Part shown: one piece after another, positions 1,337-54,141 of the stretch
How positions within the stretch are numbered: the first letter of the stretch is position 1
Layout of the letters: every line of letters begins with the position of its first letter
NCBI GenBank assembly: GCA_963662945.1
Contig: OY759974.1
Span: 1,408,001 to 1,472,000 of the forward strand
Reading direction: 5' to 3'
Length of the DNA: 64,000 nt
From: Arcobacteraceae bacterium
GTDB taxonomy: Bacteria; Campylobacterota; Campylobacteria; Campylobacterales; Arcobacteraceae
Notes under the pieces: model-generated
Told to the model about the DNA's origin: nothing
What the model saw: only the letters and a program-made list of their open reading frames with translations
Databases searched by the model: none
Position numbers and translations under genes: made by a program

Positions 1337-1393
1337 ATAACAAAGCAAAAAAGAACTGTATTAGCAATAATACAAATTCTTCTTTAATTTATC

Positions 1394-4275
<2,882 letters not shown>

Positions 4276-34307: not shown

Positions 34308-35162
34308 TCAAATACTATCAATTATAATTAATATAAAAAATACAATCCCTAAATAACCATTTATAGTAAAGAAAGCTTTATCAATTTTTGTAAAATCTTT
34401 ATGCACTATAATGTGTTCCGTTGTTAACATAGCAACACTAACAAGAATTGCAAAATAACCAAATAGTCCAAGATTAGCTTCAACAACAAATAACAACCAA
34501 AAAACTACAGTAAGAAGATGCATTATTTTAGAAAATAACATTGTATTTTTTGCACCAAATTTTGATGGAATAGAATGTAATCCTAATTCTTTATCTACTT
34601 CAATATCTTGTAAAGAGTAAAGTAAATCAAATCCAGCTACCCAAAATAATACACCAATAGAAAGATAAATAGACCATAATGGTATAGTCTCACTTACTGC
34701 AACAACACCAGCTATAGGTGCAAGACCTAAAGAAATACCAAGAATGATATGTGCCAAAAATGAGAATCTTTTAAAATATGAGTAGCTTCCAATAATAAGT
34801 AAAATAGGTACTGATAAATAGAGTGCTAAATCATTTACAAAAAATGCAACTATTATAAAACCTAAAGCATTTAAAAGTGTAAAAATAAGTATTTGACTTG
34901 GTGCGATTCTTCCATCAACACTTGGTCTGTTTAGAGTTCTTGGATTTAATGCATCAATATCTCTATCTAAATATCTGTTAAAACCCATTGCAAAATTTCT
35001 AGCTGTAAGTGCTGCTAGTACACCTAATACTAACAGTTTCCATCCAAACCAACCCTCAGCAGCAACAATCATCGCTATAAATATAAAAGGCAATGAAAAA
35101 ATAGAATGTTGAAACATTACTAATTCATTGAAGTCTTTAATTTTTTTAAGTATTTTTTCCAT
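34308..35162 (-). CDS. mqnP: UbiA-family menaquinone (futalosine pathway) prenyltransferase
   Basis: FQHSIFSLPF, AMGFNRYLDRDIDALNPRT, GFDLLYSLQDIEVD, AFFTING. Confidence 0.88.
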   Translation of the reverse strand: MEKILKKIKDFNELVMFQHSIFSLPFIFIAMIVAAEGWFGWKLLVLGVLAALTARNFAMGFNRYLDRDIDALNPRTLNRPSVDGRIAPSQILIFTLLNALGFIIVAFFVNDLALYLSVPILLIIGSYSYFKRFSFLAHIILGISLGLAPIAGVVAVSETIPLWSIYLSIGVLFWVAGFDLLYSLQDIEVDKELGLHSIPSKFGAKNTMLFSKIMHLLTVVFWLLFVVEANLGLFGYFAILVSVAMLTTEHIIVHKDFTKIDKAFFTINGYLGIVFFILIIIDSI

Positions 35163-35210
35163 AAGGGGGATTTTACTATAATGTTAATTATAGTTACCAA
35201 AAGGACGAAC

Positions 35211-36104
35211 TTGTATAAAGAAGTAGCCATCATAGCACCAACAGCATCAGGGAAAACTGCACTATCAATTCAATTAGCACATAAGACTAATTCGATTATT
35301 CTTTCACTTGATAGTTTATCTGTATATAAAGAGATAGATATAGCTTCTGCAAAACCAACGAAAGAAGAACGAGATGGTATAGTACACTTTGGTATTGACA
35401 AAGTATATCCCAATGAAAAATTTGATGTGGTGGAATTCATAGAGGAATATCAACAAGCAAAAAAGTATGCACAAAATGAGGGCAAAAATCTTATCATCGT
35501 TGGTGGTACAAGTTTTTATTTAAAGTCATTATGTGAAGGACTTTCAAAAGTTCCTACAATTTCAGAACAAACAAAAGAGATAGTCAAAGAAGAACTTAAT
35601 AATATAACTAAAAGTTATGAGTATTTAGTAAGTATTGATAAGAATTATATGAGTAAAATTGATAGAAATGATAAGTATAGAATAGAAAAAGCTCTAGAAA
35701 TTTATCATGAAACGAAATTAACTCCTAGTGATTTTTTTGAACAAAATAAACCAGAACCAATCATAAAAGATTTACAAATTTTTCAAATAGAAACTGAAGT
35801 TGAACTTTTAAGAAAAAGAATTTCTCAAAGAACGAAACAAATGATAGAAAATGGAATTATTGATGAGGTAATTTATTTAGAAAAAAAATATACTAGAAGT
35901 CCAAATTGTATGAAATCTATTGGAATTCTAGAAGTATTAGATTATCTTGATGGAAAGATTGATAAAGCAAAACTTGAAGAGGTTATTTCAATACATACAG
36001 CACAACTTGCAAAACGCCAAAGAACTTTTAATAAATCACAATTTCATAATATTACAAAAGAAAATCTAGAAAATTTAGAACAACATATCCTCAACATATT
36101 TTAG
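35211..36104 (+). CDS. miaA: tRNA dimethylallyltransferase
   Basis: PTASGKT P-loop, DSLSVYK, VGGTSFY, QLAKRQRTF; TTG at 35211 with AAGGA RBS preferred over ATG 35181. Confidence 0.95.
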   Translation: MYKEVAIIAPTASGKTALSIQLAHKTNSIILSLDSLSVYKEIDIASAKPTKEERDGIVHFGIDKVYPNEKFDVVEFIEEYQQAKKYAQNEGKNLIIVGGTSFYLKSLCEGLSKVPTISEQTKEIVKEELNNITKSYEYLVSIDKNYMSKIDRNDKYRIEKALEIYHETKLTPSDFFEQNKPEPIIKDLQIFQIETEVELLRKRISQRTKQMIENGIIDEVIYLEKKYTRSPNCMKSIGILEVLDYLDGKIDKAKLEEVISIHTAQLAKRQRTFNKSQFHNITKENLENLEQHILNIF

Positions 36105-36269
36105 TTAATAATCTTTATAAATTAAATTGTTCCTTTTTGTTACAGTGGCATAGCTATTTTAATGTATAGATAAAGAGATTGTAAGTTTATATTTAATTAT
36201 AATTGGATATTATTTGTTCAATTACTGTCGGCAAATTATATACAAAGCTATGACACACAAGGGGAAAAA

Positions 36270-36659
36270 ATGGAACATATGGATTTTGCACATCCTTATT
36301 TCGGTGCATTTATAATGTTTGTATTAACATTTGGTGCATTTTTAGCGACAACAATGTTGTCACGATTTGTAGGTGGAAAACTTGCAAGAAAAGATACTGA
36401 AAAATTAAAATGTACACTGTATGAGTGTGGACCTGAGGTTACAAAACAGCCAAATACTATCTCTGTACAATTTTATTTAATGGCGTTATTGTTTATACTT
36501 TTTGATGTGGAGATAATCTTTATGTTTCCATGGGCTGTAGATTTTAAAGTATTAGGTTGGTTTGGATTTATTGAGATGATTCTTTTTATTGTTTTATTAA
36601 CAATTGGATTTATCTACGCATGGAAAAAAGGAGCGCTTGAATGGCACAGCATAAAGTAA
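36270..36659 (+). CDS. nuoA: Complex I subunit A
   Basis: YECG, FDVEIIF, KKGALEW. Confidence 0.97.
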
Positions 36660-37150
36660 ATTATTTAAAAGATGGTGGAGCACCAATTAAATTAACTACA
36701 GTAGATAAAATAGTTAATTTTGGACGAAGTAATTCACTTTGGCCTATGACTTATGGTCTTGCATGTTGTGCTATTGAGATGATGGCATCTGGTGGTTCAA
36801 GATTTGACTTCGATAGATTTGGTACTATATTTAGAGCAAGTCCAAGACAATCAGATGTTATTGTTGTTGCTGGAACATTGACTAAAAAACACGCTGAGTT
36901 TATGAGAAGATTGTATGACCAAATGCCAGATCCAAAATGGGTTATCTCTATGGGTTCGTGTGCAAATACGGGTGGTATGTTTAATACTTATGCAACAGTA
37001 CAAGGTGTTGATAGAGTTATTCCTGTTGATATTTATTTACCAGGTTGTGCCCCAAGACCTGAAACTTTACAGTTTGCATTAATGATGTTACAACAAAAAA
37101 TAAGAAGAGAGCCTGCAGGTATGGCTCAAAGAGCAAAAAGGTTAATATAA
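36641..37150 (+). CDS. nuoB: Complex I subunit B
   Basis: [28 protein letters not shown]. Confidence 0.97.
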
Positions 37151-37151
37151 T

Positions 37152-37973
37152 ATGAGAACATATACACCAAAAGATGATGTACAGAGAAAATCTTATTATA
37201 ATGATAGATTTTATATCACACCTACATTAAAAAAAGAATCAGTTTATAGTGATGGAGTTTTTAGTTCAGATATCTCTAGTTTAAAAAATGTTGTAGAAGT
37301 ATTAGATTGTTATATTCAAGCTGATCATTTAGTGATTATTATTAATCCAGAAGATAATAAAAAAGCTATTACTCATTTAAAAGAGATTCGAGCTTATGAC
37401 TTTATGATGGAGTTAACTGCTGTTGATTATATAGCCGACAGAGGTGGTTTTGAAGTGGTTTATGAGATGTTATCAACTTCAAAACACAAAAGAATTAGAG
37501 TAAAAGCTTTTATAAAACAAGGTGATGCTATCGAGTCAGTTGAGTCTATTTTTAGAATGGCAAACTGGAGTGAACGAGAGATGTATGATATGTATGGTAT
37601 CTATGTAAATAATCACTCTTTATTAAAAAGAATTCTTATGCCTGATGATTGGGTTGGACATCCATTATTAAAAACATATCCATTACAAGGTGATGAAGCA
37701 GCTAGCTGGTATGAAGTAGATAAAATATTTGGTAAACAAGCTAGAGATATTGTTGGACCAGAATTAAGAGATGCTGCTTGTGTTGATAGATATGATACAC
37801 AAAGATTTGCTAGACTTGGACATGAAGTTCCAAAAGGTGTAGAGATAAGTGAAGGTAATGAACCAGATACACCAATTAGATATCAAGAAGAGGGTGGAGT
37901 TAAACTATTTGGGTTAACAGTTGTAACACCATTTGATAAAAAAGAAAAAATACAATTGAAAGAGAGAAAGTAG
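37152..37973 (+). CDS. nuoC: Complex I subunit C
   Basis: ANWSEREMYDMYG, RILMPDDWVGHPLLK. Confidence 0.95.
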   Translation: MRTYTPKDDVQRKSYYNDRFYITPTLKKESVYSDGVFSSDISSLKNVVEVLDCYIQADHLVIIINPEDNKKAITHLKEIRAYDFMMELTAVDYIADRGGFEVVYEMLSTSKHKRIRVKAFIKQGDAIESVESIFRMANWSEREMYDMYGIYVNNHSLLKRILMPDDWVGHPLLKTYPLQGDEAASWYEVDKIFGKQARDIVGPELRDAACVDRYDTQRFARLGHEVPKGVEISEGNEPDTPIRYQEEGGVKLFGLTVVTPFDKKEKIQLKERK

Positions 37974-39200
37974 ATGCAAGTTTCAAACAGATTAAAACCT
38001 TTCTTTGAAAATATAACTTTCGAAAGAGAAGATAATACAATGGTTGTGAACTTTGGTCCACAACATCCTTCTGCACACGGTCAACTTAGACTTATGTTAG
38101 AACTTCAAGGGGAAGAAGTAGTTAAAGCACATCCAGATGTTGGATACCTACACAGAGGTATTGAAAAAATGGCTGAAAATATGATTTATAATGAATTTTT
38201 ACCTACAACAGATAGAATGGACTATATCGCTTCAACTTCAAATAACTATGGATATGCTTTAGCGATTGAAAAATTAATAGGTGTAGAAGTACCAAGACGT
38301 GCTGAAGTCATTCGAACTATGTTGTTAGAGTTAAATAGAATTATTTCACATCTATTCTGGCTTGCAACACATGCACTAGATGTTGGTGCTATGTCAATTT
38401 TCCTTTATGCATTTAGAGAAAGAGAATTTGCAATGGATTTAATGGAAGATTACTGTGGGGCAAGACTTACACACAGCGCAGTAAGAATTGGTGGAGTTCC
38501 ATTAGATTTACCTAAAGGTTGGATTGCAAGTTTAGAAAAATATATGGAAATTTTAAGTTCACAAATTCCTATTTATGAAGGATTGTTAACAGAAAACAGA
38601 ATCTGGAAAATGAGACTTGAAAATGTAGGAATTATCCCAGTTGAGATGGCAAAATCTTGGGGAGTAACAGGTATTGCATTAAGAGGAAGTGGTGTTAAAT
38701 GGGATTTACGAAAAGAGATGCCTTATGGTTTATATCCTGAGTTAGATTTTGATATACCAATTTCAGATAAATGTGACTCTTATGGAAGATATAAGTGTTA
38801 TATGGCTGAGATGTATGAATCTATGAAAATATTAAAACAACTTATTCCAATGTATGAAGAATCTGATTCTCAACTTATGGCACATGCTCCACAATATATC
38901 TCATCTTCAAAAGAAGAGATGATGACTCAAAACTATTCATTGATGCAACATTTCGTTCTTGTAACTCAAGGTATGAGACCACCTGTTGGAGAAGTTTATG
39001 TGGCTACTGAATCACCAAAGGGTGAATTAGGTTTCTATGTTGTATCTGATGGAAGTCCTTATCCATATAAATTAAAATGTAGAGCGCCAAGTTTCTGGCA
39101 TACAGGTATTTTACAAGATCTTCTTCCTGGGCACCAATTAGCCGATGTTGTTACAATTATTGGTAACTTAAATATTGTATTTGGGGAGATTGATAGATAA
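37974..39200 (+). CDS. nuoD: Complex I subunit D
   Basis: [35 protein letters not shown]. Confidence 0.97.
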
Positions 39201-39463
39201 TGAAACGGTATGATTTAAGAAACCACAAAGAAAACTTTATCCCTAGAATGGTAGAGTTAATGAACAATGAAATAGCTGATGGAGAAAATGGTATATTTTT
39301 ATTTGAAATAGGAGATTTTTCTTCTGTTCAAGCTTCAGCTGATTGTGTTAAAGAAAATAACTGGACACTTATGAATTCGTTAAAATTCAATGAAGTAGAT
39401 TGGACAGTTGTAATAAAAAAAGAAAAACCACCAGTTGTAGAAACTGAAGAGGGTGAAGAGTAG
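39200..39463 (+). CDS. Small NuoE-position subunit (Campylobacterota NuoX/Cj1575c-like, no 2Fe-2S Cys motif)
   Basis: MKRYDLR...FLFEIGDF...LMNSLKFN resembles the short Campylobacterota protein encoded after nuoD; only one Cys. Confidence 0.75.
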   Translation: MKRYDLRNHKENFIPRMVELMNNEIADGENGIFLFEIGDFSSVQASADCVKENNWTLMNSLKFNEVDWTVVIKKEKPPVVETEEGEE

Positions 39464-39490
39464 CAATCTACTCTTTAAAGGATTGAAATT

Positions 39491-41503
39491 TTGAGTAAAG
39501 TATATTTTTCTAATTGGCAAGGATTAGTTGTAGATAATCGAGGAGTTCCGCAAGATGAGTGGGCTGAAGTATCTACAAAGTTACCTGTTAATTATGATGG
39601 GAACTCTGAGACTAAAGCTTTTGTTGGATGGGATGGTTTTGCAATATTTCAAAGTGATGTAGATGTTGTAAAACTTGCATTAAATTATGCAAGACAATAC
39701 CAAGAATATAGTGAAGCATGTGGTCGATGTACTCCAGGAAGATGGGGCGGACAAATTCTTTACGATATGATTGATAAAATAGCTCGTGGTGAAGGTGAAT
39801 TTAGTGATTTAGAACATATTAAAGAGATAAGTTCAACTATGACTACAACTTCAAAATGTGAAATAGGGAAAACAGTTCCTGTACCAATTTTAGGTATGAT
39901 AGAATATTTTGAAGAGCAATTTGTTCAGTTAATTAAAGAGAAGAAAAAATCACCTTGGTATGAACAAAATACTGAGAGATATATTGCAAATGTAACTGCA
40001 CCTTGTACTGATATGTGTCCTAGTCATGTTGATATCCCAGGATATATTGAGGGTGTAAGAGAATTGGATTTTGAAAATTCTTTAAAAGCGACAAGACAGA
40101 CAATGCCTTTAGCACATACGTGTGGAAGAGTTTGTCCACATCCTTGTGAAGATGCTTGTAGACGAGGAAATTTAGATGAACCAATTTCTATTATGGAATT
40201 AAAAAGAATTGGTGCAGATTACGAAACAGATCATAACCAAGATTGGTTTCATCCAATTAAACCTAAAAAACCAAGAAATGATGGCAAAAAAGTTGCTATT
40301 ATTGGAGCTGGACCTGCTGGGTTAACAGCTGCATATTATCTTGGACTAGAAGGAATTGCAGTAACTATTTTTGAAGAATTGCCAGTTCTTGGTGGAGAGG
40401 TTGCGGTTGGAGTTCCTGAATATAGAATGCCAATTGATAAATATAATAAAGATATTCAACTTGTTGCAGATTTACCAACAGTAGAGATTATAACAAACCA
40501 TAGAGTAACAGCAGATAGACTTAAAGAGATTGATTCTGAATATGATGCAACTATGTTAGGTTTTGGTGCGAGACTTTCAAAAGCTATAAGATGTGAAAAT
40601 GAACGAGAAGATATGGATGGATATTGGGGTGCAATATCTATGCTTGATAAGGTTAATTTATGGCATAAATATGGTATTGGAAGTCCAGCAAGTAATGAAT
40701 TAAAAGATAAAACTGTAGTTTGTGTTGGTGGTGGATTTACCTCTATGGACGTTGTAAGATGTAGTATTCGAGAGGGTGCTAAAAAAGTTATTATGCTCTA
40801 TAGACGAGATGAAAAAACAATTATTCGAAATACAACACTTGAAGAATACACTGAAGCAGTCGAAGAAGGTGTAGAGTTTATTTTTCATAGTGCAATTGAA
40901 AAATTAATTGAAAAAGATAATAAACTTACAGGAATGGTTGTAAATCAATATGAATTAGTACCAGCATCTGATGGAGGAAGACCTGAGTTAGTAAAAATAG
41001 AAGGTGCTGATATGGAAATAGAGTGTGACTTTGTTATACCTGCAGTTTCTCAAGCTTGTGATCTTCAAATTTTACCAAAAGAGTGGGAGTTAGAGATGAC
41101 TTCTTGGGGCACATTACAAACAAATGGAAAAGATTTTATGACAAGTAGACCAGGTCTTTTTGCAGCAGGAGATTGTGAATATGGTCCAATGACTATAGTA
41201 AATGCAGTTGGACAGGCAAAAAGAGCAGCTTCTGTAATTAGTCGATATATTTATGATGGAAAAGTATCACTTTTAGACGAAGAGATAATGGAAGATCATA
41301 TGAATAAACTCAAAGTTTATAATAAAAATGAAAAAATTACTGGTTGGATGCCAGGTATTCCTCGAGAAGTGAGTGAAAAATTAGAAACAGAAGTAAGAAA
41401 AAACAATAATAAAGAAGTAAATTTAGGATTTACCGCACAAGAAGCACAAGCTGAAGCAGAGCGATGTATGCGATGTTATTATTTAGGGATGGTGTCAGTA
41501 TGA
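39491..41503 (+). CDS. GltD/SfrB-like FAD- and Fe-S-containing NAD(P)H oxidoreductase within the nuo operon
   Basis: NuoF-C-like EACGRCTPG...KCEIG; GltD-like CTDMCP and CGRVCPHPCEDAC; GAGPAG FAD motif; GGGFTSMD...YRR; AAGD; C-terminal RCMRC. Confidence 0.9.
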   Translation: MSKVYFSNWQGLVVDNRGVPQDEWAEVSTKLPVNYDGNSETKAFVGWDGFAIFQSDVDVVKLALNYARQYQEYSEACGRCTPGRWGGQILYDMIDKIARGEGEFSDLEHIKEISSTMTTTSKCEIGKTVPVPILGMIEYFEEQFVQLIKEKKKSPWYEQNTERYIANVTAPCTDMCPSHVDIPGYIEGVRELDFENSLKATRQTMPLAHTCGRVCPHPCEDACRRGNLDEPISIMELKRIGADYETDHNQDWFHPIKPKKPRNDGKKVAIIGAGPAGLTAAYYLGLEGIAVTIFEELPVLGGEVAVGVPEYRMPIDKYNKDIQLVADLPTVEIITNHRVTADRLKEIDSEYDATMLGFGARLSKAIRCENEREDMDGYWGAISMLDKVNLWHKYGIGSPASNELKDKTVVCVGGGFTSMDVVRCSIREGAKKVIMLYRRDEKTIIRNTTLEEYTEAVEEGVEFIFHSAIEKLIEKDNKLTGMVVNQYELVPASDGGRPELVKIEGADMEIECDFVIPAVSQACDLQILPKEWELEMTSWGTLQTNGKDFMTSRPGLFAAGDCEYGPMTIVNAVGQAKRAASVISRYIYDGKVSLLDEEIMEDHMNKLKVYNKNEKITGWMPGIPREVSEKLETEVRKNNNKEVNLGFTAQEAQAEAERCMRCYYLGMVSV

Positions 41504-43782
41504 GCGAAAGAATACAACATAGAGGAAAGCTGATAACTATAACTATTGATGGTAAAAGTTGTGAAGGTATTTTTGGTCAAACAATACTTGAAATTGCAAG
41601 AGCAAATGATATCTATATCCCAACTATGTGTTATCTGACAAAAGTTTCCCCAATAACTGCATGTAGAATGTGTGTAGTTGATGTGGAAGGTTTGGATAAG
41701 CCTGTTTTATCGTGTCAAGAAAAAGCAGTAGATGGTACAGTGGTTACTACAAATAATGAAGAGCTTTTTAGACATAGACAAAATATTATGAAAATGTATG
41801 ATGTAAATCATCCATTACAATGTGGAGTTTGTGATAAAAGTGGAGAGTGTGATTTACAAAATAAAACATTAGAATTTAGTGTAGATTCACAAGAGTTTGC
41901 AGTAAAAGAACCAGCACGTAAGAAAAAGAAATGGGGTATTTTAGGTTATGATCCAAGCCTTTGTATTATGTGTGAGAAATGTGTACATACTTGTAATGAA
42001 GTTATAGGAAGTGCTGCACTTTATGTAAAACCAGGTGGTTATAAATCAATAATTGATATGAAGTTTTCAAGATGTGAACAGTGTGGAGATTGTATCTCTG
42101 TGTGTCCAGTTGGTGCTTTAGTATCAAATGAATTTAAATATACAGCAAATGCTTGGGAATCAAAAAAAATACCAGCAACTTGTGCTCATTGTAGCAGCGG
42201 GTGTGCTTTATATTACAATGTTAAAAATTCAGAAATATCAGACCCTTATAATAAAAAAATCACAAGAGTAACAAACGACTTTGACTTTAACTATTTATGT
42301 GGAGCTGGAAGATTTGGTTTTGAGTTTGAAAATAAAGGAAGTGGCAAAAATCCTCAAGAATTACAAAAAGCTATTGAAACTATTAAAAATAGTGAAGCAA
42401 TAATATTTAATTCTTATATTACAAATGAAGAAGCAAAAATACTTCAAGCATTAAAAGAAAATATAGGTATAAAACTTATTAATGAAGATGCTTATAATTA
42501 TAAAAACTTTTTAGAAAATTATAAAAAAGCAAGTGGTAATTCACTTTATACAGCAGATTCAAAAGATATAGAAGCTAGTGATGCAGTTATAATGATAGGA
42601 ACAAGAGTTAGCAGAGACAATCCTGGAATTAAGTATGCTACAAATATTGCAACAAAAAAACAAAGAGCAGAATTTATTTATATGCATCCAATGGATGATA
42701 TAGCACTACAAAATAAATATACACAATTTGTAAAATATGAAGCAGGTAGTGAAGAAGGGGTTATAGCATTACTTGCTTCTTATCTAATAAAAGATGTTCC
42801 AGTTGAACATAAAGAATTTTTTGATGATTTAGATATTGGGTATTTAAGTGGTGAATCAAGTGTAGGTGAAGAAGAGTTAGACAATATTGTAAAAAAACTT
42901 ATAAGAAGAAAAAATAAAACACTTATTATTGGTGAAGACCTCTATGGACACTCAAATGGTTCAAATATTGCAAAGCTAGTTGGACTTATTGATAAATGTA
43001 CAGATTTTAATGTTATGTTAGTTCCATCACAAACAAATACTCTGGGTGTAAGTTTAATATGTGATTTAGATGCAAACATAGATGCAGGTTTTAAAACTGT
43101 AGGTTATAATGAAAATGCTGATTATGTAATAAGTAGTAATGGTGATGGAGACTTCCAAGTTCCAGCACTTAATCAACAAGAAGGTACTTTTGTTGATTTA
43201 AATAAAAAAGTTGTTAATACAAATGTTGCACTTTCATTTGATGGTTATTGTTTAAATGATATTGCAAATGGATTACTTAAAGACAACAAAGTAAACAGTA
43301 TAGACTATACTTCACAACTTCCAGCGAAGAGCGGATTTAAAAATATTTGTTTTGATGAATTAAATAATGGTTATAATAAATATGGTGAAGATTTGAGAGG
43401 ATACTATTTAGTAAATAGTAAATGTGATGAAGAAGGGTGTATTTTAGAGGAAGTTTCAGATATAAATACGTATAATGGGACGGTAATTTATAGATGTGAG
43501 CCACTTCATCAATTTAATAAAAGCACAGCAAAATCTTTACAACTACAATCTAATGATAGTTTAAGAGGAAGTGCATCTTTTGCAACAGCTGCAAAGATAA
43601 AAGATGGAGATACAGTTAATATAGTATATAATAATAGTATAACAACTAAAAAATTTAAGATTGATACAACAATAAAAGGTACGATAGCGCTTTATCCTAC
43701 ATATAGTAGTGGGTTAAGTAGTGACTTAATACCTAGTGGGTATAGATTTAAGCAAGTTCAAATTCAAAAGGTTGAAGAGTAA
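41500..43782 (+). CDS. nuoG: NuoG-like Fe-S protein, copy 1 (SfrA-like; N7 ligands intact)
   Basis: N1b C..C/CRMC, N5 HPLQCGVC...C, N4 CIMCEKC and CEQCGDC..CP, N7 CAHCSSGC...LCGAGR; ATG 41500 overlaps upstream stop (ATGA). Confidence 0.85.
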   Translation: MSERIQHRGKLITITIDGKSCEGIFGQTILEIARANDIYIPTMCYLTKVSPITACRMCVVDVEGLDKPVLSCQEKAVDGTVVTTNNEELFRHRQNIMKMYDVNHPLQCGVCDKSGECDLQNKTLEFSVDSQEFAVKEPARKKKKWGILGYDPSLCIMCEKCVHTCNEVIGSAALYVKPGGYKSIIDMKFSRCEQCGDCISVCPVGALVSNEFKYTANAWESKKIPATCAHCSSGCALYYNVKNSEISDPYNKKITRVTNDFDFNYLCGAGRFGFEFENKGSGKNPQELQKAIETIKNSEAIIFNSYITNEEAKILQALKENIGIKLINEDAYNYKNFLENYKKASGNSLYTADSKDIEASDAVIMIGTRVSRDNPGIKYATNIATKKQRAEFIYMHPMDDIALQNKYTQFVKYEAGSEEGVIALLASYLIKDVPVEHKEFFDDLDIGYLSGESSVGEEELDNIVKKLIRRKNKTLIIGEDLYGHSNGSNIAKLVGLIDKCTDFNVMLVPSQTNTLGVSLICDLDANIDAGFKTVGYNENADYVISSNGDGDFQVPALNQQEGTFVDLNKKVVNTNVALSFDGYCLNDIANGLLKDNKVNSIDYTSQLPAKSGFKNICFDELNNGYNKYGEDLRGYYLVNSKCDEEGCILEEVSDINTYNGTVIYRCEPLHQFNKSTAKSLQLQSNDSLRGSASFATAAKIKDGDTVNIVYNNSITTKKFKIDTTIKGTIALYPTYSSGLSSDLIPSGYRFKQVQIQKVEE

Positions 43783-46226
43783 TGGATAATATGATAAATG
43801 TAACTATTGATGGCAAGCAGTGTCAAGCAAAAGAGGGCGAATTTATATTAAATGTTGCAAGAGCAAATGGTATTTTTGTTCCTGCTATTTGTTATCAAAC
43901 AAAGTGTTCACCAACACTAGCTTGTCGATTGTGTTTAGTAGAAGCAGATGGAAAACAAGTATATGCATGTAATGCCAAAGCAAAAGATGGTATGCAAATC
44001 ACTGTAAATACTCCAAACATTGAAAAAGAAAGACGAGCTATTATGGAAGTTTACGATGTAAATCATCCATTACAATGTGGGGTTTGTGATCAAAGTGGGG
44101 AGTGTGAACTACAGAATTACTCTTTATATATGAAAGTTGATTCTCAAAACTATGCAGTTCAAGATGTAAATAGACCAGCATCAAACTGGGGAGTTATGAA
44201 ATATGACCCAGGACTTTGTATTGTATGTGAAAAGTGTGTAACTGTATGTAAAGATATGATAGGTTCGAATGCACTTGGAACTGTAAAAAGAGGTGCTGAA
44301 GCACTTGATAAAGAATACAAAGATAATATGCCAAAAGATGCTTATGCTATGTGGAATAAGCTTAATAAAAACCTGATTGGATTTGAAGAAGAAAAGTGTA
44401 TTGACTGTGGAGAGTGTATCGCAGTTTGTCCAGTTGGTGCATTAGTAAGTTCAGATTTCCAATATAAATCAAATGCATGGGAATTAACAAAAGTACCAGC
44501 ATCAAATCCTTATTCATCAGATTGTTCACTTATGTACTATGAAGTGAAGCATGATACGATTGAAAATAATACTGAGAAAAAAATCTATAGAGTAACAAAC
44601 GATGCACATTATGTGAGTTTAAGTGGGGCAGCAAGATTTGGATTTGATTATGTAAATAAATCAACTAAAGATGAAATTGCATTTAAAAATGCAGTTGAAG
44701 CTGTAAAGAACGCAGAATCAATTATATTTAATTCTTTTATTACAAATGAAGAAGCTCAAATACTTCAAAAAATCAAAGAACAAACAGGTGCAAAACTTAT
44801 CAATATAGATGCATTAAAATATAAAAACTTTTTAGAAGGATATTCATCGGTTACAGGGAAAAGTTTTTACAATGCTACATTAGAAGATGTTCATAATAGT
44901 AACTTTGTAATTTCTGTAGGATCATTTTTAAAATCAGATGCACCAGTTGTGAAATATGCTTTTAATAATGCACTTACTATGAACAAAGGAGCAGGATTAT
45001 ATTTCCATCCGATGGGAGATAATCATATAAAAGGATTTAGTAAAAATATAGAGACAATTGCCTCTAATCCATTAAGTGAAGAGGCAATTTTATATTTTAT
45101 ACTAGACAAATTTGGTAAAGATTTACCAAGTATCGTTTCAGAATACTTAACATCACAAAACGAAACAAGAACTAAAACAGTTGTAGAAACTGTAAAAGAA
45201 GAAGTTGTGGAAACTGTTACTGATGAAGAAACAGGAGAAACAAAAGAGGTTACTAAAATGGTACCTAAAAAAGTATCAACTGAAGTAGAATATGTGTATA
45301 GTAAACTACTTGATATTATTGGTGCTGATGCTACATTATTAGAAACATTAGAAACTATGCTTGATAAAAAAGATAGTTTTAGTTTAATTATTGGTGAAGA
45401 TTGTATCTCTCATCCAAATAGTGAGAATATTTCAAAATTAGCTGGAATGATAGAAAAATATACAGATTTTAAAGTATTAGTAGTACCAACACAAACAAAT
45501 ACTTTAGGGGTAAGTTTATTATGTGATTTGGATGTAATAGCTACTGGAAAAACTGTTGGATATAATATGAAAGCAGATTTCCAATTAAGTGCATTGGGTG
45601 ATGGTGATCTTGATATGCCAGTACTTTCTCAACAAGAGGGAACCTTTGTAAATATTAATAAAACAGTTGTACCAACAAATGCAGCAGTTGTTTATAGTGG
45701 ATATACTTTAAACGACATAGCAAATGAAATTTTAGGCAATAAAGTTCATAACACAATAGATTATACAGCAACTCTATTCAATAAAGTAGCTTTTGATTCT
45801 TTAGAAAATCATTATTCTAATGATAGAGTTGAACATAGAGGATATATTTTAGAGTCACAAACAGTTACAGTTTTAGATGAAAATGTAAAAAATGAGTTTA
45901 AAACAATAAAATGTGAAGAAAATGAGTATATTATTTACAGTGGAAATCCAATAAATCAATTTAATGAGTTTACAGCTGTATCAAATCAACTAAAAAATGA
46001 TATAGTTGCTTTATATTTATCAGAAAGCTTAAAAGAAAAACTACAATTAGAAGATGATAATAAAGTTGAAGTAATATCAAATGGAAATACAATTATACTT
46101 GATATAAGAGTGGACAAAGATTTAGTTGGTGAGATAGCTTATGTTCCAACATTTGATAAAAATATAGAAACGAAAAATTTATTTGATAACTGTAGATACA
46201 GTAAAGCAAATTTAAGAAGGGTGTAA
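43782..46226 (+). CDS. nuoG: NuoG-like Fe-S protein, copy 2 (N7 site degenerate)
   Basis: Same N1b/N5/N4 motifs, but SNPYSSDC...LSGAAR at the N7 position; directly precedes nuoH. Confidence 0.9.
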   Translation: MDNMINVTIDGKQCQAKEGEFILNVARANGIFVPAICYQTKCSPTLACRLCLVEADGKQVYACNAKAKDGMQITVNTPNIEKERRAIMEVYDVNHPLQCGVCDQSGECELQNYSLYMKVDSQNYAVQDVNRPASNWGVMKYDPGLCIVCEKCVTVCKDMIGSNALGTVKRGAEALDKEYKDNMPKDAYAMWNKLNKNLIGFEEEKCIDCGECIAVCPVGALVSSDFQYKSNAWELTKVPASNPYSSDCSLMYYEVKHDTIENNTEKKIYRVTNDAHYVSLSGAARFGFDYVNKSTKDEIAFKNAVEAVKNAESIIFNSFITNEEAQILQKIKEQTGAKLINIDALKYKNFLEGYSSVTGKSFYNATLEDVHNSNFVISVGSFLKSDAPVVKYAFNNALTMNKGAGLYFHPMGDNHIKGFSKNIETIASNPLSEEAILYFILDKFGKDLPSIVSEYLTSQNETRTKTVVETVKEEVVETVTDEETGETKEVTKMVPKKVSTEVEYVYSKLLDIIGADATLLETLETMLDKKDSFSLIIGEDCISHPNSENISKLAGMIEKYTDFKVLVVPTQTNTLGVSLLCDLDVIATGKTVGYNMKADFQLSALGDGDLDMPVLSQQEGTFVNINKTVVPTNAAVVYSGYTLNDIANEILGNKVHNTIDYTATLFNKVAFDSLENHYSNDRVEHRGYILESQTVTVLDENVKNEFKTIKCEENEYIIYSGNPINQFNEFTAVSNQLKNDIVALYLSESLKEKLQLEDDNKVEVISNGNTIILDIRVDKDLVGEIAYVPTFDKNIETKNLFDNCRYSKANLRRV

Positions 46227-46229
46227 GAG

Positions 46230-47189
46230 ATGGATAATGATATTATAATGACGATTGTCAAAGTATTAGTTATTTTGCTTGTGTTTTCAGCATTAGCTGG
46301 ATTTACTACATATATAGAGAGAAAAGTTTTAGCATTTATGCAAAGAAGACCAGGTCCACTGCACGTTGGACCTTATGGAGTATTACAAATTTTAGCAGAT
46401 GGTGCTAAACTTTTTACAAAAGAAGACTTCATCCCACAAAATGCTAATAGACTGATATTTATGGTAGCACCAGTTATAACTGCTGCTACTGCATTTATTG
46501 CGATGACAGCAGTTCCATTTGTACCAGGTGTGATTGTATCTGATATTAATGTTGGTGTATTATTTGTATTAGGTGTTATGGCAACAGGACTTTATGGTCC
46601 ACTTCTTGGTGGTATGTCACAAGCAAATAAATGGGGACTTCTTGGAGGTGCGAGAACTGCAATTCAACTTTTATCTTATGAAGTTGTTACAGGTTTATCA
46701 ATCTTGGCACCATTAATGTTAGTTGGGAGTTTATCATTAATTGATATTAACAACTATCAAGCTGGAGGAGTTTCAAATTGGTTAATCTGGACACAACCAG
46801 TAGCATTTTTCTTATTTTTAATTGCTGGATATGCTGAAACAAACAGAACACCATTTGACCTTTTAGAGCATGAAGCTGAGGTTGTTGCTGGATATGCTAC
46901 AGAGTATTCGGGTATGAGATGGGGTATGTTCTTTATTGGAGAGTATGCAAACCTATTTACTGTTTCATTTTTAACAGCATTAATGTTCTTGGGTGGATTT
47001 AATGATTTATGGTTTATTCCAGGTGCTATTGCTATTTTACTTAAAGTAATGTTTTTAATATTTTTATTTTTATGGACAAGAGCATCTTGGCCACATGTAA
47101 GACCAGATCAACTTATGTGGTTATGTTGGAAAATATTAATGCCATTAGCATTATTTAATATTTTAGTTACAGCTATTGTAGTTATATAG
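46230..47189 (+). CDS. nuoH: Complex I subunit H
   Basis: ERKVLAFMQRRPGP, AETNRTPFDL, EYSG, RPDQLM. Confidence 0.97.
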   Translation: MDNDIIMTIVKVLVILLVFSALAGFTTYIERKVLAFMQRRPGPLHVGPYGVLQILADGAKLFTKEDFIPQNANRLIFMVAPVITAATAFIAMTAVPFVPGVIVSDINVGVLFVLGVMATGLYGPLLGGMSQANKWGLLGGARTAIQLLSYEVVTGLSILAPLMLVGSLSLIDINNYQAGGVSNWLIWTQPVAFFLFLIAGYAETNRTPFDLLEHEAEVVAGYATEYSGMRWGMFFIGEYANLFTVSFLTALMFLGGFNDLWFIPGAIAILLKVMFLIFLFLWTRASWPHVRPDQLMWLCWKILMPLALFNILVTAIVVI

Positions 47190-47203
47190 TAAGGGTTTTA
47201 ATT

Positions 47204-47827
47204 ATGAGTTTTAAAGAATTAAAAGATAGAAATGTGGGAAGCCAAAACTATGTGATGATGGATATTGAAGATTATCCAACATCTGGTTGGGATAAGTTCA
47301 AACAAATTATGGATAGAGGATTAAGCGTTGAATTATTTAAAGGGTTAGGGATAACTTTTAAAATAATGAAAGATGTGCTGTTCAATGGACAATCACACAA
47401 TACACAATATCCTATAGAAAAATTACCTATAAGTCCAAGATATAGAGCTGTTCATAAGCTTTTAGGATTATTAGAAAGTGGAAACAATAGATGTATTGGT
47501 TGTGGGCTTTGTGAAAAAATATGTATTGCAAAATGCATAAGAATGGATACAAAAATTGATGAAAATTCAAGAAAAGAAGTTATGGAATACACTATTAACT
47601 TAGGAAGATGTATTTTCTGTGGTTATTGTGCTGAAGTATGTCCAGAACTTGCTATTGTACATGGTGATAGATATGAGAATGCTAGTGAACAAAGAGAACA
47701 TTTTGTATTAAAAGACGATCTTCTTACTCCGTTTGCTGAACTTCAAAATCAACTTGAATATCAAGGATTTGGTGCAATTTCACCAGATGCTGATAAAAAA
47801 ATTAAAAAAACGCCATTGGCTTATTAA
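47204..47827 (+). CDS. nuoI: Complex I subunit I
   Basis: CIGCGLCEKIC and CIFCGYCAEVCP 2x[4Fe-4S] motifs. Confidence 0.97.
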   Translation: MSFKELKDRNVGSQNYVMMDIEDYPTSGWDKFKQIMDRGLSVELFKGLGITFKIMKDVLFNGQSHNTQYPIEKLPISPRYRAVHKLLGLLESGNNRCIGCGLCEKICIAKCIRMDTKIDENSRKEVMEYTINLGRCIFCGYCAEVCPELAIVHGDRYENASEQREHFVLKDDLLTPFAELQNQLEYQGFGAISPDADKKIKKTPLAY

Positions 47828-47838
47828 AGGATTAAGAT

Positions 47839-48417
47839 ATGTTTGAAGTAGTAGCTTTTTATCTGTTTGCTTTTTTAACAATAGCAATGTTTAGTATTGT
47901 AGTGATTACAAAAAATCCACTATATGCTTTAAGTTCACTGGCAGCTGGGATGATATTTATATCAGCATTTTTCTTCCTTTTAGGAGCTGAATTTTTAGGT
48001 GCAGTACAAATTGTTGTATATACAGGGGCTGTAATGGCTTTATATGCATTTGGTATGATGTTTTTTGATTCAATAAATGATGTAAAAGAATCAGTAGCAA
48101 ATCCAAGAGTAACATTTATGATGACAGGAATTATTGCATTATTAGTAGTAGCAATATTTATGGCTCCAATTATTGGTGCAAATGCAACAGCACATTATCC
48201 AATACATGAAGCATATGGAAATACACAAGATATCGGTTTAGTATTATTTACAAAATACCTTGTTCCTTTTGAAGTAGCTGCAGTTATGTTACTTGTAGCT
48301 ATGATAGGTGGAATTATACTTGCTGGTAAAAAAATGGATATTTCAATTACTCAATTAACAGAGCAAGAGATTGATAACCATAAAACAGATACAGAGATAG
48401 CAAAGGATATTAAATGA
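47839..48417 (+). CDS. nuoJ: Complex I subunit J
   Basis: AEFLGAVQIVVYTGA, YLVPFE. Confidence 0.96.
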   Translation: MFEVVAFYLFAFLTIAMFSIVVITKNPLYALSSLAAGMIFISAFFFLLGAEFLGAVQIVVYTGAVMALYAFGMMFFDSINDVKESVANPRVTFMMTGIIALLVVAIFMAPIIGANATAHYPIHEAYGNTQDIGLVLFTKYLVPFEVAAVMLLVAMIGGIILAGKKMDISITQLTEQEIDNHKTDTEIAKDIK

Positions 48418-48719
48418 GTGTAACATTAAATGATTATTTAATACTAAGTACAATTATCTTTATGATAGGTATGTATGGAGCATTAAGAAGAAAAAATTTA
48501 CTGATGTTATTTTTCTCAACAGAGATTATGTTAAATGCAGTAAATATTGGAATGGCTGCAATTTCTAAATTTCATGGAGATTTAACTGGTCAAATGTTTG
48601 CATTTTTTATTATTGCAATTGCGGCAAGTGAAGTAGCAATAGGTCTAGGTCTTTTAGTATTGTGGTTTAAACGAAACAATAATATTAACTTAGATTCATT
48701 ACAAAGTATGAAGGGATAG
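48414..48719 (+). CDS. nuoK: Complex I subunit K
   Basis: RRKNLL, EIMLNA, AASEVAIGL. Confidence 0.96.
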   Translation: MSVTLNDYLILSTIIFMIGMYGALRRKNLLMLFFSTEIMLNAVNIGMAAISKFHGDLTGQMFAFFIIAIAASEVAIGLGLLVLWFKRNNNINLDSLQSMKG

Positions 48720-48723
48720 AGGT

Positions 48724-50655
48724 ATGGAGAGTTATTTATATATTGCACTTTTTGCTCCACTTGTTGGATCATTATTTGCAGCACTATTTGGTAATAGTCC
48801 AAAGAAATTGTTTGTAGGTGTTATCACTTCTGCACTTTTAGCAGTTTCATTAATAGCATCAATTAGTTTATTGATGCATGTTTATCTAACAGAATCAATT
48901 GTTCATGTGAAAATGTTAGATTGGATTGTTATAGGTAATGTTGATATTCCTTTTGGATTTGTTGTTGATCAAGTAAGTGTTGTTATGATGGTAGTTGTTA
49001 CAATCGTTTCAACAATGGTACATATTCATTCAATAGGATATATGGATCACGATAAAAGTTTTAATAGATTTTTTGCTTGGTTATCAGCGTTTGTATTCTC
49101 AATGATGATTCTTGTTATGTCTGATAACTTTGCTGGATTATTTATAGGTTGGGAAGGAGTTGGTCTTTGTTCTTGGGGACTAATTGGATTTTGGTATCAT
49201 AAAGAAGATATTAAAAGAAGTAAAAATATTGAAGAATCACCATATTCTACATTATCACCATACTCTTCAAAATCTCCATCATGGGCGGCAAATGAAGCAT
49301 TTATTATGAATAGAGTTGCTGACCTTGGTATGTTGATTGGATTGTTCTTAATTTTTTGGAATATTGGTTCTTTACAATATAATGTTGTATTTTCACAAAT
49401 TGGAACACTTGATCATGGTTTAATAGTAGCAATTGGAGCTTTTCTTTTTATAGGTGCTATGGGTAAATCAGCACAGTTTCCATTTAATACATGGCTTGCA
49501 AATGCTATGGAAGGTCCAACACCAGTTTCAGCACTTATTCACGCTGCAACAATGGTAACAGCAGGGGTATATTTAGTAATTAGAGCAAATGAGATATTCA
49601 CAGTTATTCCTGAAGTTGGATATTTTATAGCTAGTCTAGGTGCATTTGTAGCAATTGGTGCAGCATTAATGGCATTAGTTGCAACTAATATGAAGAAAAT
49701 TATTGCATTCTCAACATTATCACAACTTGGATATATGTTTGTTGCAGCTGGTCTTGGTGCATACTGGGTAGCATTATTCCACCTTGCAACTCATGCATTC
49801 TTTAAATCTGTATTATTCTTAGGTGCAGGTAATGTTATGCATGCAACAAATGATGAGATTAATATTAAAAAAATGGGTGGTTTAGCTAAACATATGCCAC
49901 AAACAGCATTAATTATGACAATAGCTTCAGTAGCACTTGCAGGTATTTTCCCATTAGCAGGTTTCTTCTCAAAAGATTTAATTTTAGAAGTTGCTTATGG
50001 AAGTCATGCATATGTTTTATGGACAGTATTATGGATAACAGCAGGTTTAACAGCCTTTTATTCATTTAGACTTGTAATGTATGTATTTCATGGAAAAGAA
50101 AATTATGATCATGCAAAAGTACATCCACATGAAACATATCCATTTGTAATTGCTGCTATGTCACCGTTAGCAATCTTAGCAATTTGTGCAGGATGGTTTG
50201 AACATCAATTTGTAGAGATGGTAACTAAAGTATTACCACCACTTGATATTCATGTGAATCCAACAGTATTTTATTCACTAATTGCAGTAACAACTGCTAT
50301 TGCATTAGGTGGTATTATATTTGCTGTAGTGAAATTTAAAAAAGATGGTACATATTACAGTGAAAAAATGAAAAATAGATTTTGTTATAAAGTATTAGCA
50401 AATCAATATTATTTACCACATTTTTGGGAAGCAGCAGTAAGTAAACCTTATACAAAATTATCTGAATTTAGTTGGAAAGAGATTGATTTAAAAATTATTG
50501 ATACTATTGTAGATGGTATTGCAAAAGGTATTTATGGTGGTGGAGAAGCTGGAACTTCTATGCAATCAGGTAACTTATCAAAAGCTTTAAAATGGATGGG
50601 AATAGGTATATTTATTCTTATCATATTAGTTGTAGTTTTTGGCAATTTGAAGTAA
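48724..50655 (+). CDS. nuoL: Complex I subunit L
   Basis: GWEGVGLCS, GKSAQFP, AMEGPTPVSALIHAATMV, STLSQLG, HAFFK. Confidence 0.97.
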   Translation: MESYLYIALFAPLVGSLFAALFGNSPKKLFVGVITSALLAVSLIASISLLMHVYLTESIVHVKMLDWIVIGNVDIPFGFVVDQVSVVMMVVVTIVSTMVHIHSIGYMDHDKSFNRFFAWLSAFVFSMMILVMSDNFAGLFIGWEGVGLCSWGLIGFWYHKEDIKRSKNIEESPYSTLSPYSSKSPSWAANEAFIMNRVADLGMLIGLFLIFWNIGSLQYNVVFSQIGTLDHGLIVAIGAFLFIGAMGKSAQFPFNTWLANAMEGPTPVSALIHAATMVTAGVYLVIRANEIFTVIPEVGYFIASLGAFVAIGAALMALVATNMKKIIAFSTLSQLGYMFVAAGLGAYWVALFHLATHAFFKSVLFLGAGNVMHATNDEINIKKMGGLAKHMPQTALIMTIASVALAGIFPLAGFFSKDLILEVAYGSHAYVLWTVLWITAGLTAFYSFRLVMYVFHGKENYDHAKVHPHETYPFVIAAMSPLAILAICAGWFEHQFVEMVTKVLPPLDIHVNPTVFYSLIAVTTAIALGGIIFAVVKFKKDGTYYSEKMKNRFCYKVLANQYYLPHFWEAAVSKPYTKLSEFSWKEIDLKIIDTIVDGIAKGIYGGGEAGTSMQSGNLSKALKWMGIGIFILIILVVVFGNLK

Positions 50656-50668
50656 GGAAGGAAGGTAA

Positions 50669-53679: not shown

Positions 53680-53688
53680 AACACTATA

Positions 53689-53713
53689 GAACTAGTAGCT
53701 ATACTACTAGTTC
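53689..53713 (+). terminator. Stem-loop downstream of nuoN (probable operon terminator)
   Basis: GAACTAGTAG-CTATA-CTACTAGTTC perfect 10-bp inverted repeat 10 nt after the stop; U-tract weak. Confidence 0.6.
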
Positions 53714-53799
53714 GACTTAAACTACTCTTAATATAAATTTCATTACAATTGCGTCTCTACTTTATAAGGTAAGCATTGAGAATATATAAGTATTTTGAC

Positions 53800-53903
53800 T
53801 GCTTCTCTTAGACCTTTACAATTAACTTTAAAGGCAACTCCCCAGGGTAGGAATACAGCAAGGAACCTTTATCTTTGGTGTGTTTAGGTATCTGGGAGGA
53901 GTA
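53800..53903 (+). ncRNA. ffs: Signal recognition particle (4.5S) RNA
   Basis: Helix-8 signature CAGG-GTA-GGAA-TAC-AGCA at 53843-53860 inside a long hairpin whose ends TGCTTCTCTTAGACCT and AGGTATCTGGGAGGAGTA pair; TACAAT -10 at 53744-53749. Confidence 0.88.
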
Positions 53904-53979
53904 CTTTTCTTATATAAAAAAAATCATAAAACTTATTAAAATAAATAACAGTAGAAAGAATTTTTACTGCATAAAAGAT

Positions 53980-54141
53980 TTACTTATTAACAGCTTTTTT
54001 AAGACTATCTAATGCATCACTTGTCGCTTCTTTAGTTGAATCCATAGCTTTGTCAAGTTTATCACCTGCTGTTTCTTCACCACAGCCTGCTAAAGTAATG
54101 AGAACAAAAAAAGTTCCTAACAGTAATAATGTTTTTTTCAT
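53980..54141 (-). CDS. Small lipoprotein (53 aa)
   Basis: AAGGA RBS, MKKTLLLLG signal, lipobox LAGC, short amphipathic helix; the longer 54219 start is unlikely. Confidence 0.85.
   Translation of the reverse strand: MKKTLLLLGTFFVLITLAGCGEETAGDKLDKAMDSTKEATSDALDSLKKAVNK

Follow-up and report, generated by a model that had tools for sequence, protein, structure and literature searches.

An NADPH-type flavoprotein gene and two nuoG copies within a complex I operon of an Arcobacteraceae bacterium

How does complex I exchange electrons with a soluble carrier when its operon encodes neither NuoE nor NuoF? The question is raised by the nuo operon (36270-53679, + strand) in a 64,000-nucleotide stretch of DNA (the window, whose numbering we use unless another sequence is named) from the 2.50-Mb single-contig genome of an Arcobacteraceae bacterium, in which a single run of closely packed or overlapping genes reads nuoA-B-C-D, a gene for an 87-residue NuoX-type protein, a gene for a 670-residue iron-sulfur (Fe-S) flavoprotein, nuoG1, nuoG2 and nuoH-I-J-K-L-M-N. 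The best explanation, to which we give slightly less than even odds (about 0.45), is that this operon encodes a "long-headed" epsilon-type complex I, a reversible NADP(H):menaquinone oxidoreductase that works mainly in reverse in this bacterium. Operons of this kind are the main published candidate for the way in which chemolithoautotrophic Campylobacterota supply NADPH and reduced ferredoxin to the reductive tricarboxylic acid (TCA) cycle, and Campylobacter jejuni and Helicobacter pylori have a cut-down relative, the NuoXY form, as their complex I.

In the proposed enzyme, the membrane arm and Q-module (NuoA-D, NuoH-N) would carry a head made of NuoG2 in the canonical NuoG position, an extra NuoG1, a cofactor-less NuoX and the flavoprotein. 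NADP(H) would react at the FAD of the GltD/NfnB-type core of the flavoprotein, and electrons would then pass through the two [4Fe-4S] clusters of this protein, the three-Cys cluster of its NuoF-like tail, the Fe-S chains of NuoG1 and NuoG2, NuoI and NuoB to menaquinone. While gene content, conservation of domains and ligands, fold, synteny, distribution and the relationship of NuoY to NuoG1 come directly from the analysis, we infer the attachment of the flavoprotein, this electron path, the use of NADPH over NADH and the direction of flow; given such a head and such a path, the enzyme would be a reversible, proton-coupled NADP(H):menaquinone oxidoreductase. Its main job in this genome, which carries ATP-citrate lyase (ACL), would most likely be to use the proton-motive force to reduce NADP+ with menaquinol and so to supply the reductive TCA cycle. 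Menaquinone as the quinone is supported by the presence of mqnP (menaquinone prenyltransferase; 34308-35162, - strand) just upstream of the operon.

The flavoprotein between NuoX and NuoG1

The sequence-only reading of this locus had seen no canonical nuoE or nuoF between nuoD and nuoH, and Pfam indeed detected neither the NuoF FMN/NADH domain (PF01512) nor NuoE (PF01257) in the nuo operon. The genome's sole copies of these families lie in a hoxEFUYH cluster 870 kb away and only one nuo operon was found in the genome, so that no other NADH module is at hand, which supports the explanation given above. Also found in the sequence were the 87-aa protein, the 670-aa flavoprotein, the two NuoG paralogs and the gene overlaps reported at the outset, the latter being TAATG between nuoD and nuoX, ATGA between the flavoprotein gene and nuoG1 at 41500, and TAATG between nuoG1 and nuoG2 at 43780-43784. 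The initial observation was correct, far beyond chance.

The flavoprotein gene (39491-41503, + strand like all features of the operon, TTG start), analysed with Pfam, NCBIfam, phmmer against the PDB, AlphaFold2 and Foldseek, encodes PF10589 (NuoF Fe-S region, residues 63-145), PF14691 (Fer4_20, 158-248) and PF07992 (266-576), a domain order that assigns the protein to the SfrB/FdhB(NADP)-type architecture class. Residues ~26-147 (39566-39931) align only to positions 290-409 of the 410 in the TIGR01959 nuoF_fam model, scoring 61 bits against a cut-off of 558, and the last 120 positions of this model are what we take to be the Fe-S segment that faces NuoG in canonical complex I. The NuoF tail holds a three-Cys N3-like site (C77, C80 and C123): in the window protein and 20 orthologs from 11 coded families (n = 21, the set used for motif conservation), CGRC[A/T]PG and C123 are found throughout and the residue at the third Cys position of the N3 motif is always Gly (Gly83). 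By contrast, canonical NuoF has PF01512 and a four-Cys N3 site, both of which the flavoprotein lacks.

The core that follows is of the GltD type. Its Fer4_20 domain (39962-40234) contains six Cys (C172, C176, C211, C215, C219 and C223) kept in 21/21, the FAD dinucleotide motif GAGPAG (residues 272-277; 40304-40321) is present in 20/21, and the NADP(H) site, running from GGGFTSMD (from residue 413) to YRR (437-439; 40727-40807), is again found in 21/21 as GGGFTSMD...YRRD. A C-terminal CxxC (C659 and C662; 41465-41476) within EAERCMRCYY, shared by 21/21 orthologs and 28/28 aligned outgroup representatives, brings the invariant Cys of the flavoprotein to eleven. The fusion of a NuoF tail to a GltD-type core with GAGPAG, YRR and Gly in place of the third Cys is confirmed, and it is conserved in 20-21 of the 21 proteins. 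As EAERCMRCYY aligns to RCLEC or RCMSC after the flavin domain of StnC/NfnA-type chains (positions ~560-594), the C659/C662 pair may correspond to the Cys pair at the N terminus of NfnB/GltD; together with the six Fer4_20 Cys it would make eight ligands, enough for two predicted [4Fe-4S] clusters.

Residues ~160-663 matched GltD/NfnB-type proteins in the PDB by phmmer, with 9bov_A best (E 1.3e-81), accompanied by 9n5u_A and 8oh5_C and followed by NfnB/SudA (4ylf_B), GltD and DPD. Similarly, a Foldseek search with the AlphaFold2 model (pLDDT 93.1, pTM 0.91, 31-row alignment) returned 9bov_A first (E 1.7e-43, TMq 0.64, 503 columns, 35% identity); the top chains were the NADPH-binding subunits of NfnABC/StnABC (TMq 0.63-0.64), and NfnB, Xfn, GltD and DPD came after them. 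The YRR aligns with residues 310-312 of T. maritima NfnB (4ylf_B) and with the YRR of the NADPH-dependent Azospirillum GltD, and Tyr310 and Arg311-312 of NfnB are named as binders of the 2'-phosphate of NADPH in a 2019 preprint (bioRxiv 10.1101/717884). These motifs and models support well the binding of NADPH by the flavoprotein, in line with the NADPH-type module first proposed for it.

The likeness to NfnA of NfnABC (9bov_A, 9n5u_A) and StnC of StnABC (8oh5_C) covers residues ~164-663 at 32-35% identity and takes in the Cys pair after the flavin domain. However, in these soluble bifurcating enzymes the GltD-like part is inserted in a NuoG-like chain and has NuoE/NuoF-like partners, whereas here it belongs to a separate protein with a NuoF tail, encoded in the operon of a membrane complex without NuoE/NuoF. 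GltD and NfnB likewise share the core with its FAD and NADPH sites and two Fe-S clusters, but no GltB or NfnA gene adjoins the flavoprotein gene, whose neighbours are nuoX and nuoG1. Three features argue for membership of the flavoprotein in complex I: only the NuoG-facing part of NuoF is kept, the genes are coupled by ATGA and TAATG overlaps, and the position between nuoX and nuoG1 is held in 20/20 loci (see below).

NuoX, the two NuoG copies and the origin of NuoY

We assign the 87-aa protein (39200-39463) to the NuoX/HP1264 type and not to NuoE because of its matches to PF16514 (NADH-UOR_E, E 4.5e-35) and to PDB entry 2lxr_A (76 aa, E 3.5e-18), which is deposited as 'NADH dehydrogenase I subunit E'. 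Its lone Cys is kept in just 1/21 orthologs and is therefore not a ligand, so that NuoX carries no cluster. The two NuoG proteins, encoded by nuoG1 (41500-43782; 760 aa; NF006305, 853 bits) and nuoG2 (43782-46226; 814 aa; NF006305, 1092 bits over the full length), are 40% identical over their whole length, NuoG2 having two extra segments at ~170-200 and ~460-530. The longest open reading frame of nuoG1 begins at 41464, and the ATGA start at 41500 agrees with the orthologs. All ligand sets of NuoG1 (2Fe-2S, N5, two ferredoxin-type 4Fe-4S and N7) are kept in 20-21 of 21 orthologs and the first four of these sets are found in NuoG2 of 19/19 orthologs; at the N7 ligand positions of NuoG2 (residues 242-281; 44505-44627) the window protein has N, S, S and S, with Cys in 15/19 orthologs. 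A complex prediction combining NuoG1 1-275, NuoG2 1-290 and the flavoprotein tail 1-160 scored 0.58, 0.52 and 0.56, with control scores of 0.60 when the NuoG2 chain was swapped and of 0.00 and 0.00 when the partner was swapped, and carries no weight either way.

Comparison with the NuoXY-type complex I of C. jejuni and H. pylori tells the two copies apart. Four such operons (loci L092-L095) share NuoA-D, NuoX, NuoG and NuoH-N with the window at 43-82% identity, and by sequence their single NuoG, which best matches NuoG2, is the ortholog of NuoG2; they differ in that they have no flavoprotein and in that a 230-340-aa NuoY stands where the window has a full-length NuoG1. The gene after nuoX in these four operons (247-339 aa) gave collinear BLASTP matches to NuoG1 at ~360-518 and ~645-760 (E 8e-24 to 2e-9) and weak matches or none to NuoG2. 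None of the four NuoY proteins (0/4) has any Pfam family, Fe-S domains included, and NuoY corresponds to residues ~363-518 and ~646-760 of NuoG1 only. A profile of the four NuoY sequences matched the host genome only inside nuoG1 (42589-43773, in blocks 42589-43044 and 43444-43773, E 3.4e-28 and 4.9e-14), apart from a faint match to nuoG2 (E 0.003). Likewise, hhalign paired NuoY with NuoG1 at probability 100 (E 3.9e-43, 247 columns) as against 96.9 for NuoG2 (E 1.8e-10, 146 columns).

Homology to the C-terminal part of NuoG1, and the lack of all Fe-S domains, hold for NuoY of loci L092-L096, L099, L100 and L165-L184. Trees of the shared C-terminal columns separated NuoG1 and NuoY from NuoG2 and the single NuoG with support of 100/99.8 (48 rows) and 98 (70 rows). 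We take NuoY of Campylobacter/Helicobacter-type operons to be a truncated NuoG1 on this sequence evidence. Since NuoXY-type operons retain the C-terminal part of NuoG1 in the form of NuoY, NuoG1 is a complex I subunit lineage, which is a further argument for membership of the flavoprotein in complex I. The sequence-only reading had a flavoprotein-NuoG1 head replace a NuoY-like subunit; the relationship runs in the reverse direction, NuoY being homologous to NuoG1 and nesting with it. No statement of this homology turned up in our literature searches. The internal gap of NuoY has varied 5' edges (at about NuoG1 residues 509, 526, 540 and 559) and a shared 3' edge at ~647.

The number of truncations suggested by the trees varies with sampling. 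In the 48-row tree, with five NuoY sequences, monophyly of NuoY was rejected (p-AU 0.008), and three origins seemed to be indicated, an idea that failed under denser sampling. The best 70-row tree, with 27 NuoY sequences, has two NuoY placements, 23 rows (coded families f1, f3, f4, f5 and f11) forming one clade with support 92 and four Helicobacter-type rows lying within the f2 NuoG1 clade with support 99, yet the test does not reject one common origin of NuoY (ΔlnL 28.4, p-AU 0.123). We also rejected the idea that NuoY is a remnant of the NuoF tail of the flavoprotein, as the 160-aa tail matched 0/63, 0/34 and 0/34 genomes of three large NuoXY-type genera. The NuoY profile matches 285 of the 301 Campylobacterota genomes that we sampled. 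One genome (G005, family f5) has a stand-alone 236-aa NuoY-like gene with no nuo genes adjoining.

Descent from NuoG1 provides a concrete structural hypothesis for NuoY. There is also a wider reading, which we regard as tentative and more doubtful than the explanation proposed at the start: the long-headed enzyme may be the older epsilon-type form of complex I and a three-port machine, exchanging electrons with menaquinone, with NADP(H) at the flavoprotein and with ferredoxin or flavodoxin at the surface made by NuoX and the C-terminal part of NuoG1, and would use the proton-motive force to generate the two reductants that the reductive TCA cycle needs. If so, the essential NuoY of Campylobacter and Helicobacter would be the stump left after loss of the flavoprotein gene and of the Fe-S half of nuoG1, a loss that may have occurred more than once, and the pathogens' enzyme, flavodoxin-dependent according to a review (PMC6682613) and the 2019 preprint, would be a cut-down version of the enzyme of autotrophs. 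Cultured autotrophs would be the place to study the full head.

Distribution and described relatives

At E <= 1e-20 the 670-aa protein finds matches in 110/301 genomes, of which 67 contain an ortholog-grade flavoprotein (E <= 1e-160), the remaining 43 matches being at the level of a ~460-aa GltD paralog. The ortholog-grade protein occurs in every genome of coded family f7 (23/23), in almost all of f4, f6, f8, f9, f10, f12, f13 and f14, in part of the genera of f2 and in 4/16 Arcobacteraceae, but nowhere in f3. The survey of synteny across Campylobacterota that had been suggested for this locus placed the flavoprotein gene between nuoX and nuoG1 in 20/20 loci from 11 coded families, with nuoG2 and nuoH next in 18/20; one of the other two loci is cut off by the end of its contig.

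Arcobacteraceae that lack the flavoprotein have canonical NuoF genes of ~420 aa. One of them (G275; loci L096 and L097) has two nuo operons: an epsilon-type nuoABCD-X-Y-G-H... operon whose NuoD is 78% identical to that of the window, and a canonical 14-subunit operon that includes NuoE/NuoF and is only distantly related, its NuoD being 38% identical. The latter fits the statement in PMC6682613 that A. butzleri has canonical nuoEF. One coded genus (g40 of family f4) is mixed, G121 having the flavoprotein type and G274 an X-Y-G operon (L100); G274 also has ATP-citrate lyase and, where a contig ends, another NuoY-like frame. In some genomes of family f2 (Helicobacteraceae-like; L085 9885-12773, L087 9518-11692) the flavoprotein is lengthened to 724-962 aa by an insert of low complexity, as long as ~290 aa, between NuoF tail and GltD core, and there NuoG1 and NuoG2 are longer too (1046 and 1012 aa).

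The operon is a member of an already described, biochemically uncharacterised type, and its layout is not new. For Sulfurimonas denitrificans, the preprint of McNichol and Sievert (2019, bioRxiv 10.1101/717884) describes Suden_1824 as a 'NuoF replacement', Suden_1823 as a short NuoG and Suden_1822 as a long NuoG. It already gives the gene order, the likeness to NfnB, the conservation of the YRR and of the Fe-S cysteines, the pair of NuoG copies and the idea of coupling to NADP(H), and attributes the first mention of the architecture to Weerakoon and Olson (2008); the portions of Moparthi and Hägerhäll (2011) and Spero et al. (2015) available mention only the 12-subunit Campylobacter/Helicobacter form. 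The window agrees with that description in the order of flavoprotein, short NuoG and long NuoG, in an NfnB-like flavoprotein with YRR, in the inserts of the long NuoG (~170-200 and ~460-530 here; 175-204 and 466-532 in the preprint) and in the identity of its NuoG pair (40%), a value of ~36-40% being the criterion of the Sulfurimonas/Sulfurovum type; the preprint also puts forward the same hypothesis of NADP(H) coupling through reverse electron transport. The window differs, on a comparison of the Suden proteins by description, in that the host belongs to Arcobacteraceae and in that NuoG2 lacks the N7 ligands. The sequence-only reading had expected similar gene orders in Arcobacter relatives; the type is on record for S. 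denitrificans and present in four of 16 Arcobacteraceae, and our literature searches found no biochemistry for it.

Direction of electron flow, and the remaining genes of the window

Besides ACL, the host genome encodes two short flavodoxins and three loci for 2-oxoacid:acceptor oxidoreductases (OFORs). Among the 301 genomes, 54 have both the flavoprotein type and ACL, 13 the flavoprotein only, 12 ACL only and 222 neither, which amounts to ACL in 54/67 flavoprotein-type genomes versus 12/234 others; within Arcobacteraceae the counts are 4/4 versus 0/12. Because of this co-occurrence, reverse operation is favoured in the autotroph-like host, and we see moderate support for an NADPH-producing role as proposed for Sulfurimonas, the enzyme being in principle reversible.

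Several points weigh against the proposed enzyme or its direction. First, the association with ACL is in large part phylogenetic, with the contrast in Arcobacteraceae probably a single event, and it has exceptions both ways: 13 genomes (11 of f2 and 2 of f6) have the flavoprotein without ACL, and 12 (7 of f5, 4 of f11 and G274) have ACL without the flavoprotein. Second, the NuoF tail supplies three Cys only, which leaves the type and even the presence of its predicted cluster uncertain. Third, the case for NADPH over NADH comes from likeness of motifs. Fourth, in one of the 20 loci (L070 4947-11145; G287, contig C62) the nuo genes end after nuoG1 and unrelated genes follow directly (PTPS, Nnr, Mur ligase and GroEL), either as a split operon or as a chimeric contig of a fragmented assembly. 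Finally, apart from the 2019 preprint our literature searches yielded nothing on the type, neither biochemistry nor a structure of any member.

The same anatomy would also serve a forward-only respiratory enzyme in which catabolic NADPH is oxidised and its electrons are pumped into menaquinone, as NADH is used by canonical complex I. This reading, the main one of the sequence-only account and one that we hold to be rather unlikely, draws on the 13/67 carriers without ACL, from which it follows that the enzyme cannot serve autotrophy alone, and on the three OFOR loci of the host; it sits poorly with the ACL of the host and of 54/67 carriers and with the contrast inside Arcobacteraceae. It also sits poorly with the family members without ACL, which combine the NuoXY form with canonical NuoEF in a second operon, as seen in G275.

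Equally improbable in our estimate is the three-way hub that McNichol and Sievert suggested for S. denitrificans in their preprint (bioRxiv 10.1101/717884), in which menaquinol electrons, driven by Δp, would be split between NADP+ at the flavoprotein and ferredoxin or flavodoxin at another port, for which either NuoX together with the NuoY-like region of NuoG1 or one of the NuoG clusters would serve. Beyond the argument of the preprint, this proposal is in keeping with the retention of both NuoX and the NuoY-homologous region, with closest solved folds that are NADPH subunits of the bifurcating NfnABC/StnABC, and with the two short flavodoxins and three OFOR loci of the genome. Yet the operon has no Bfu-type NuoE/NuoF partner and NuoX/NuoY as a flavodoxin site is putative; the hub and simple NADP+ reduction are not told apart by the present data. 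Production of NADPH by reverse electron transport and an additional flavodoxin or ferredoxin port, both raised in the sequence-only reading, are possible.

If instead the flavoprotein were a soluble enzyme that is merely co-transcribed, either SfrAB/FdhAB-like with NuoG1 or GltD-type with a partner of its own, complex I would be fed by flavodoxin or ferredoxin only. The names SfrAB (of Geobacter sulfurreducens) and NADP-dependent FdhAB, in part known from source annotations (for instance 'formate dehydrogenase (NADP+) beta subunit'), presumably apply to the relatives outside the phylum, whose B subunits share PF10589 + PF14691 + PF07992 at ~650-680 aa and are 30-41% identical to the flavoprotein over the full length. 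We fetched metagenome loci of such relatives with P0123, the closest non-Campylobacterota representative (41% identity, same architecture), and in 10/10 long loci a NuoG/Fdh-like gene comes after the SfrB-like one, with no other nuo genes within 6 kb. In one of these (L102), where housekeeping genes flank the pair, the partner has 856 aa with 2Fe-2S, NuoG-type 4Fe-4S, Molybdopterin (143.6 bits) and Molydop_binding domains. These stand-alone two-gene modules, the nearest relatives fetched, suggest that the flavoprotein class typically forms a soluble two-subunit module, and argue for a soluble enzyme in the window; they differ from the embedded gene in their A subunit with strong molybdopterin domains. 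The outgroup B subunits mostly keep the CxxCxxC N3 motif, and 4/28 of those aligned (P0123, P0125, P0130 and P0132) have CCxxCxxG, whose extra Cys is absent from the Campylobacterota proteins. SfrB is cited as a GltD-like relative in PMC7483475, whereas in PMC13147460 the name stands for a fumarate reductase without bearing on this case.

The partner proteins tell against a soluble module. In a tree of the N-terminal region (51 rows, 441 columns), NuoG1, NuoG2 and the single NuoG are separated from the A-like proteins and one canonical NuoG, the sole one included and on a long branch, with support 100/99, and forcing NuoG1 together with the A-like (SfrA-like) proteins costs 21.6 lnL (p-AU 0.078). 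The head of SfrB-like flavoprotein plus NuoG1 that was first envisaged stands as regards the flavoprotein, but an import of NuoG1 as an SfrA-like partner is not supported, so that the earlier account is partly supported, being correct on the NADPH-type module and wrong on the origins of NuoG1 and NuoY. Given that NuoG1 is a paralog of the epsilon-type NuoG, that its lineage persists as NuoY within NuoXY-type operons, that the position in the operon is fixed in 20/20 loci and that no GltB or NfnA gene adjoins, a separate 462-aa GltD paralog being encoded elsewhere in the genome (genome positions 601313-602551), we consider a soluble flavoprotein very improbable. A partnership with a GltB glutamate synthase, named at the outset as an observation that would count against the complex I assignment, did not come to light in the vicinity of the gene.

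Weaker still by a shade is the notion that the module uses NADH, or both nucleotides, despite its YRR: the specificity is read from a motif and the glycine motif of the NADPH site is lineage-specific (GGGFTSMD here versus GGGN[VT]A[IM]D in outgroup relatives), but the YRR is invariant in 21/21 and aligns with NADPH-binding residues of NfnB and of NADPH-dependent GltD.

The other genes of the operon are those expected for the Q-module and membrane arm of the long-headed complex I that we favour. Upstream of nuoX lie nuoA (36270-36659; PF00507; NF006303, 218.7 bits, above cut-off), nuoB (36641-37150; PF01058; NF005012, 250.4 bits), nuoC (37152-37973; PF00329; NF006304, 366 bits) and nuoD (37974-39200; PF00346; TIGR01962, 581.7 bits). 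Downstream of nuoG2 follow nuoH (46230-47189; PF00146; NF004741, 406 bits), nuoI (47204-47827; NF004542, 318.7 bits), nuoJ (47839-48417; PF00499; NF005167), nuoK (48414-48719; PF00420; NF004320), nuoL (48724-50655; NF005141, 728.6 bits), nuoM (50669-52195; NF004505, 864.5 bits) and nuoN (52195-53679; NF004444, 792.4 bits). A scan of 35100-54400, in DNA of 30% GC, counted 92 promoter-like sites where 113.5 were expected and 10 terminator-like sites where 5.2 were expected, counts that are uninformative at such a GC content. No RNA sequencing runs covering the window are listed; 20 rows of DNA or unknown type from 7 studies hold all or part of it.

Outside the window, the hoxEFUYH cluster, encoding a bidirectional [NiFe] hydrogenase, is located at G000:C1:2321055-2325821 (locus L164 2056-6822), and a Complex1_49kDa-like frame of 374 aa is present at C1:2105734-2106450. 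Within the window, a PAS sensor histidine kinase and a response regulator (31136-34292, + strand) lie just upstream of the nuo operon, as does mqnP. An rRNA operon (the 3' part of 16S, two tRNAs, 23S and 5S) occupies positions 1-4518, which is why the window opens with 41-48% GC. Between 16222 and 19465, two type I GAPDH paralogs stand on either side of pgk, followed by genes for triose-phosphate isomerase and fabI; the first paralog passes the TIGR01534 cut-off with 409.7 bits, whereas the second, with 245.7 bits, does not reach it.

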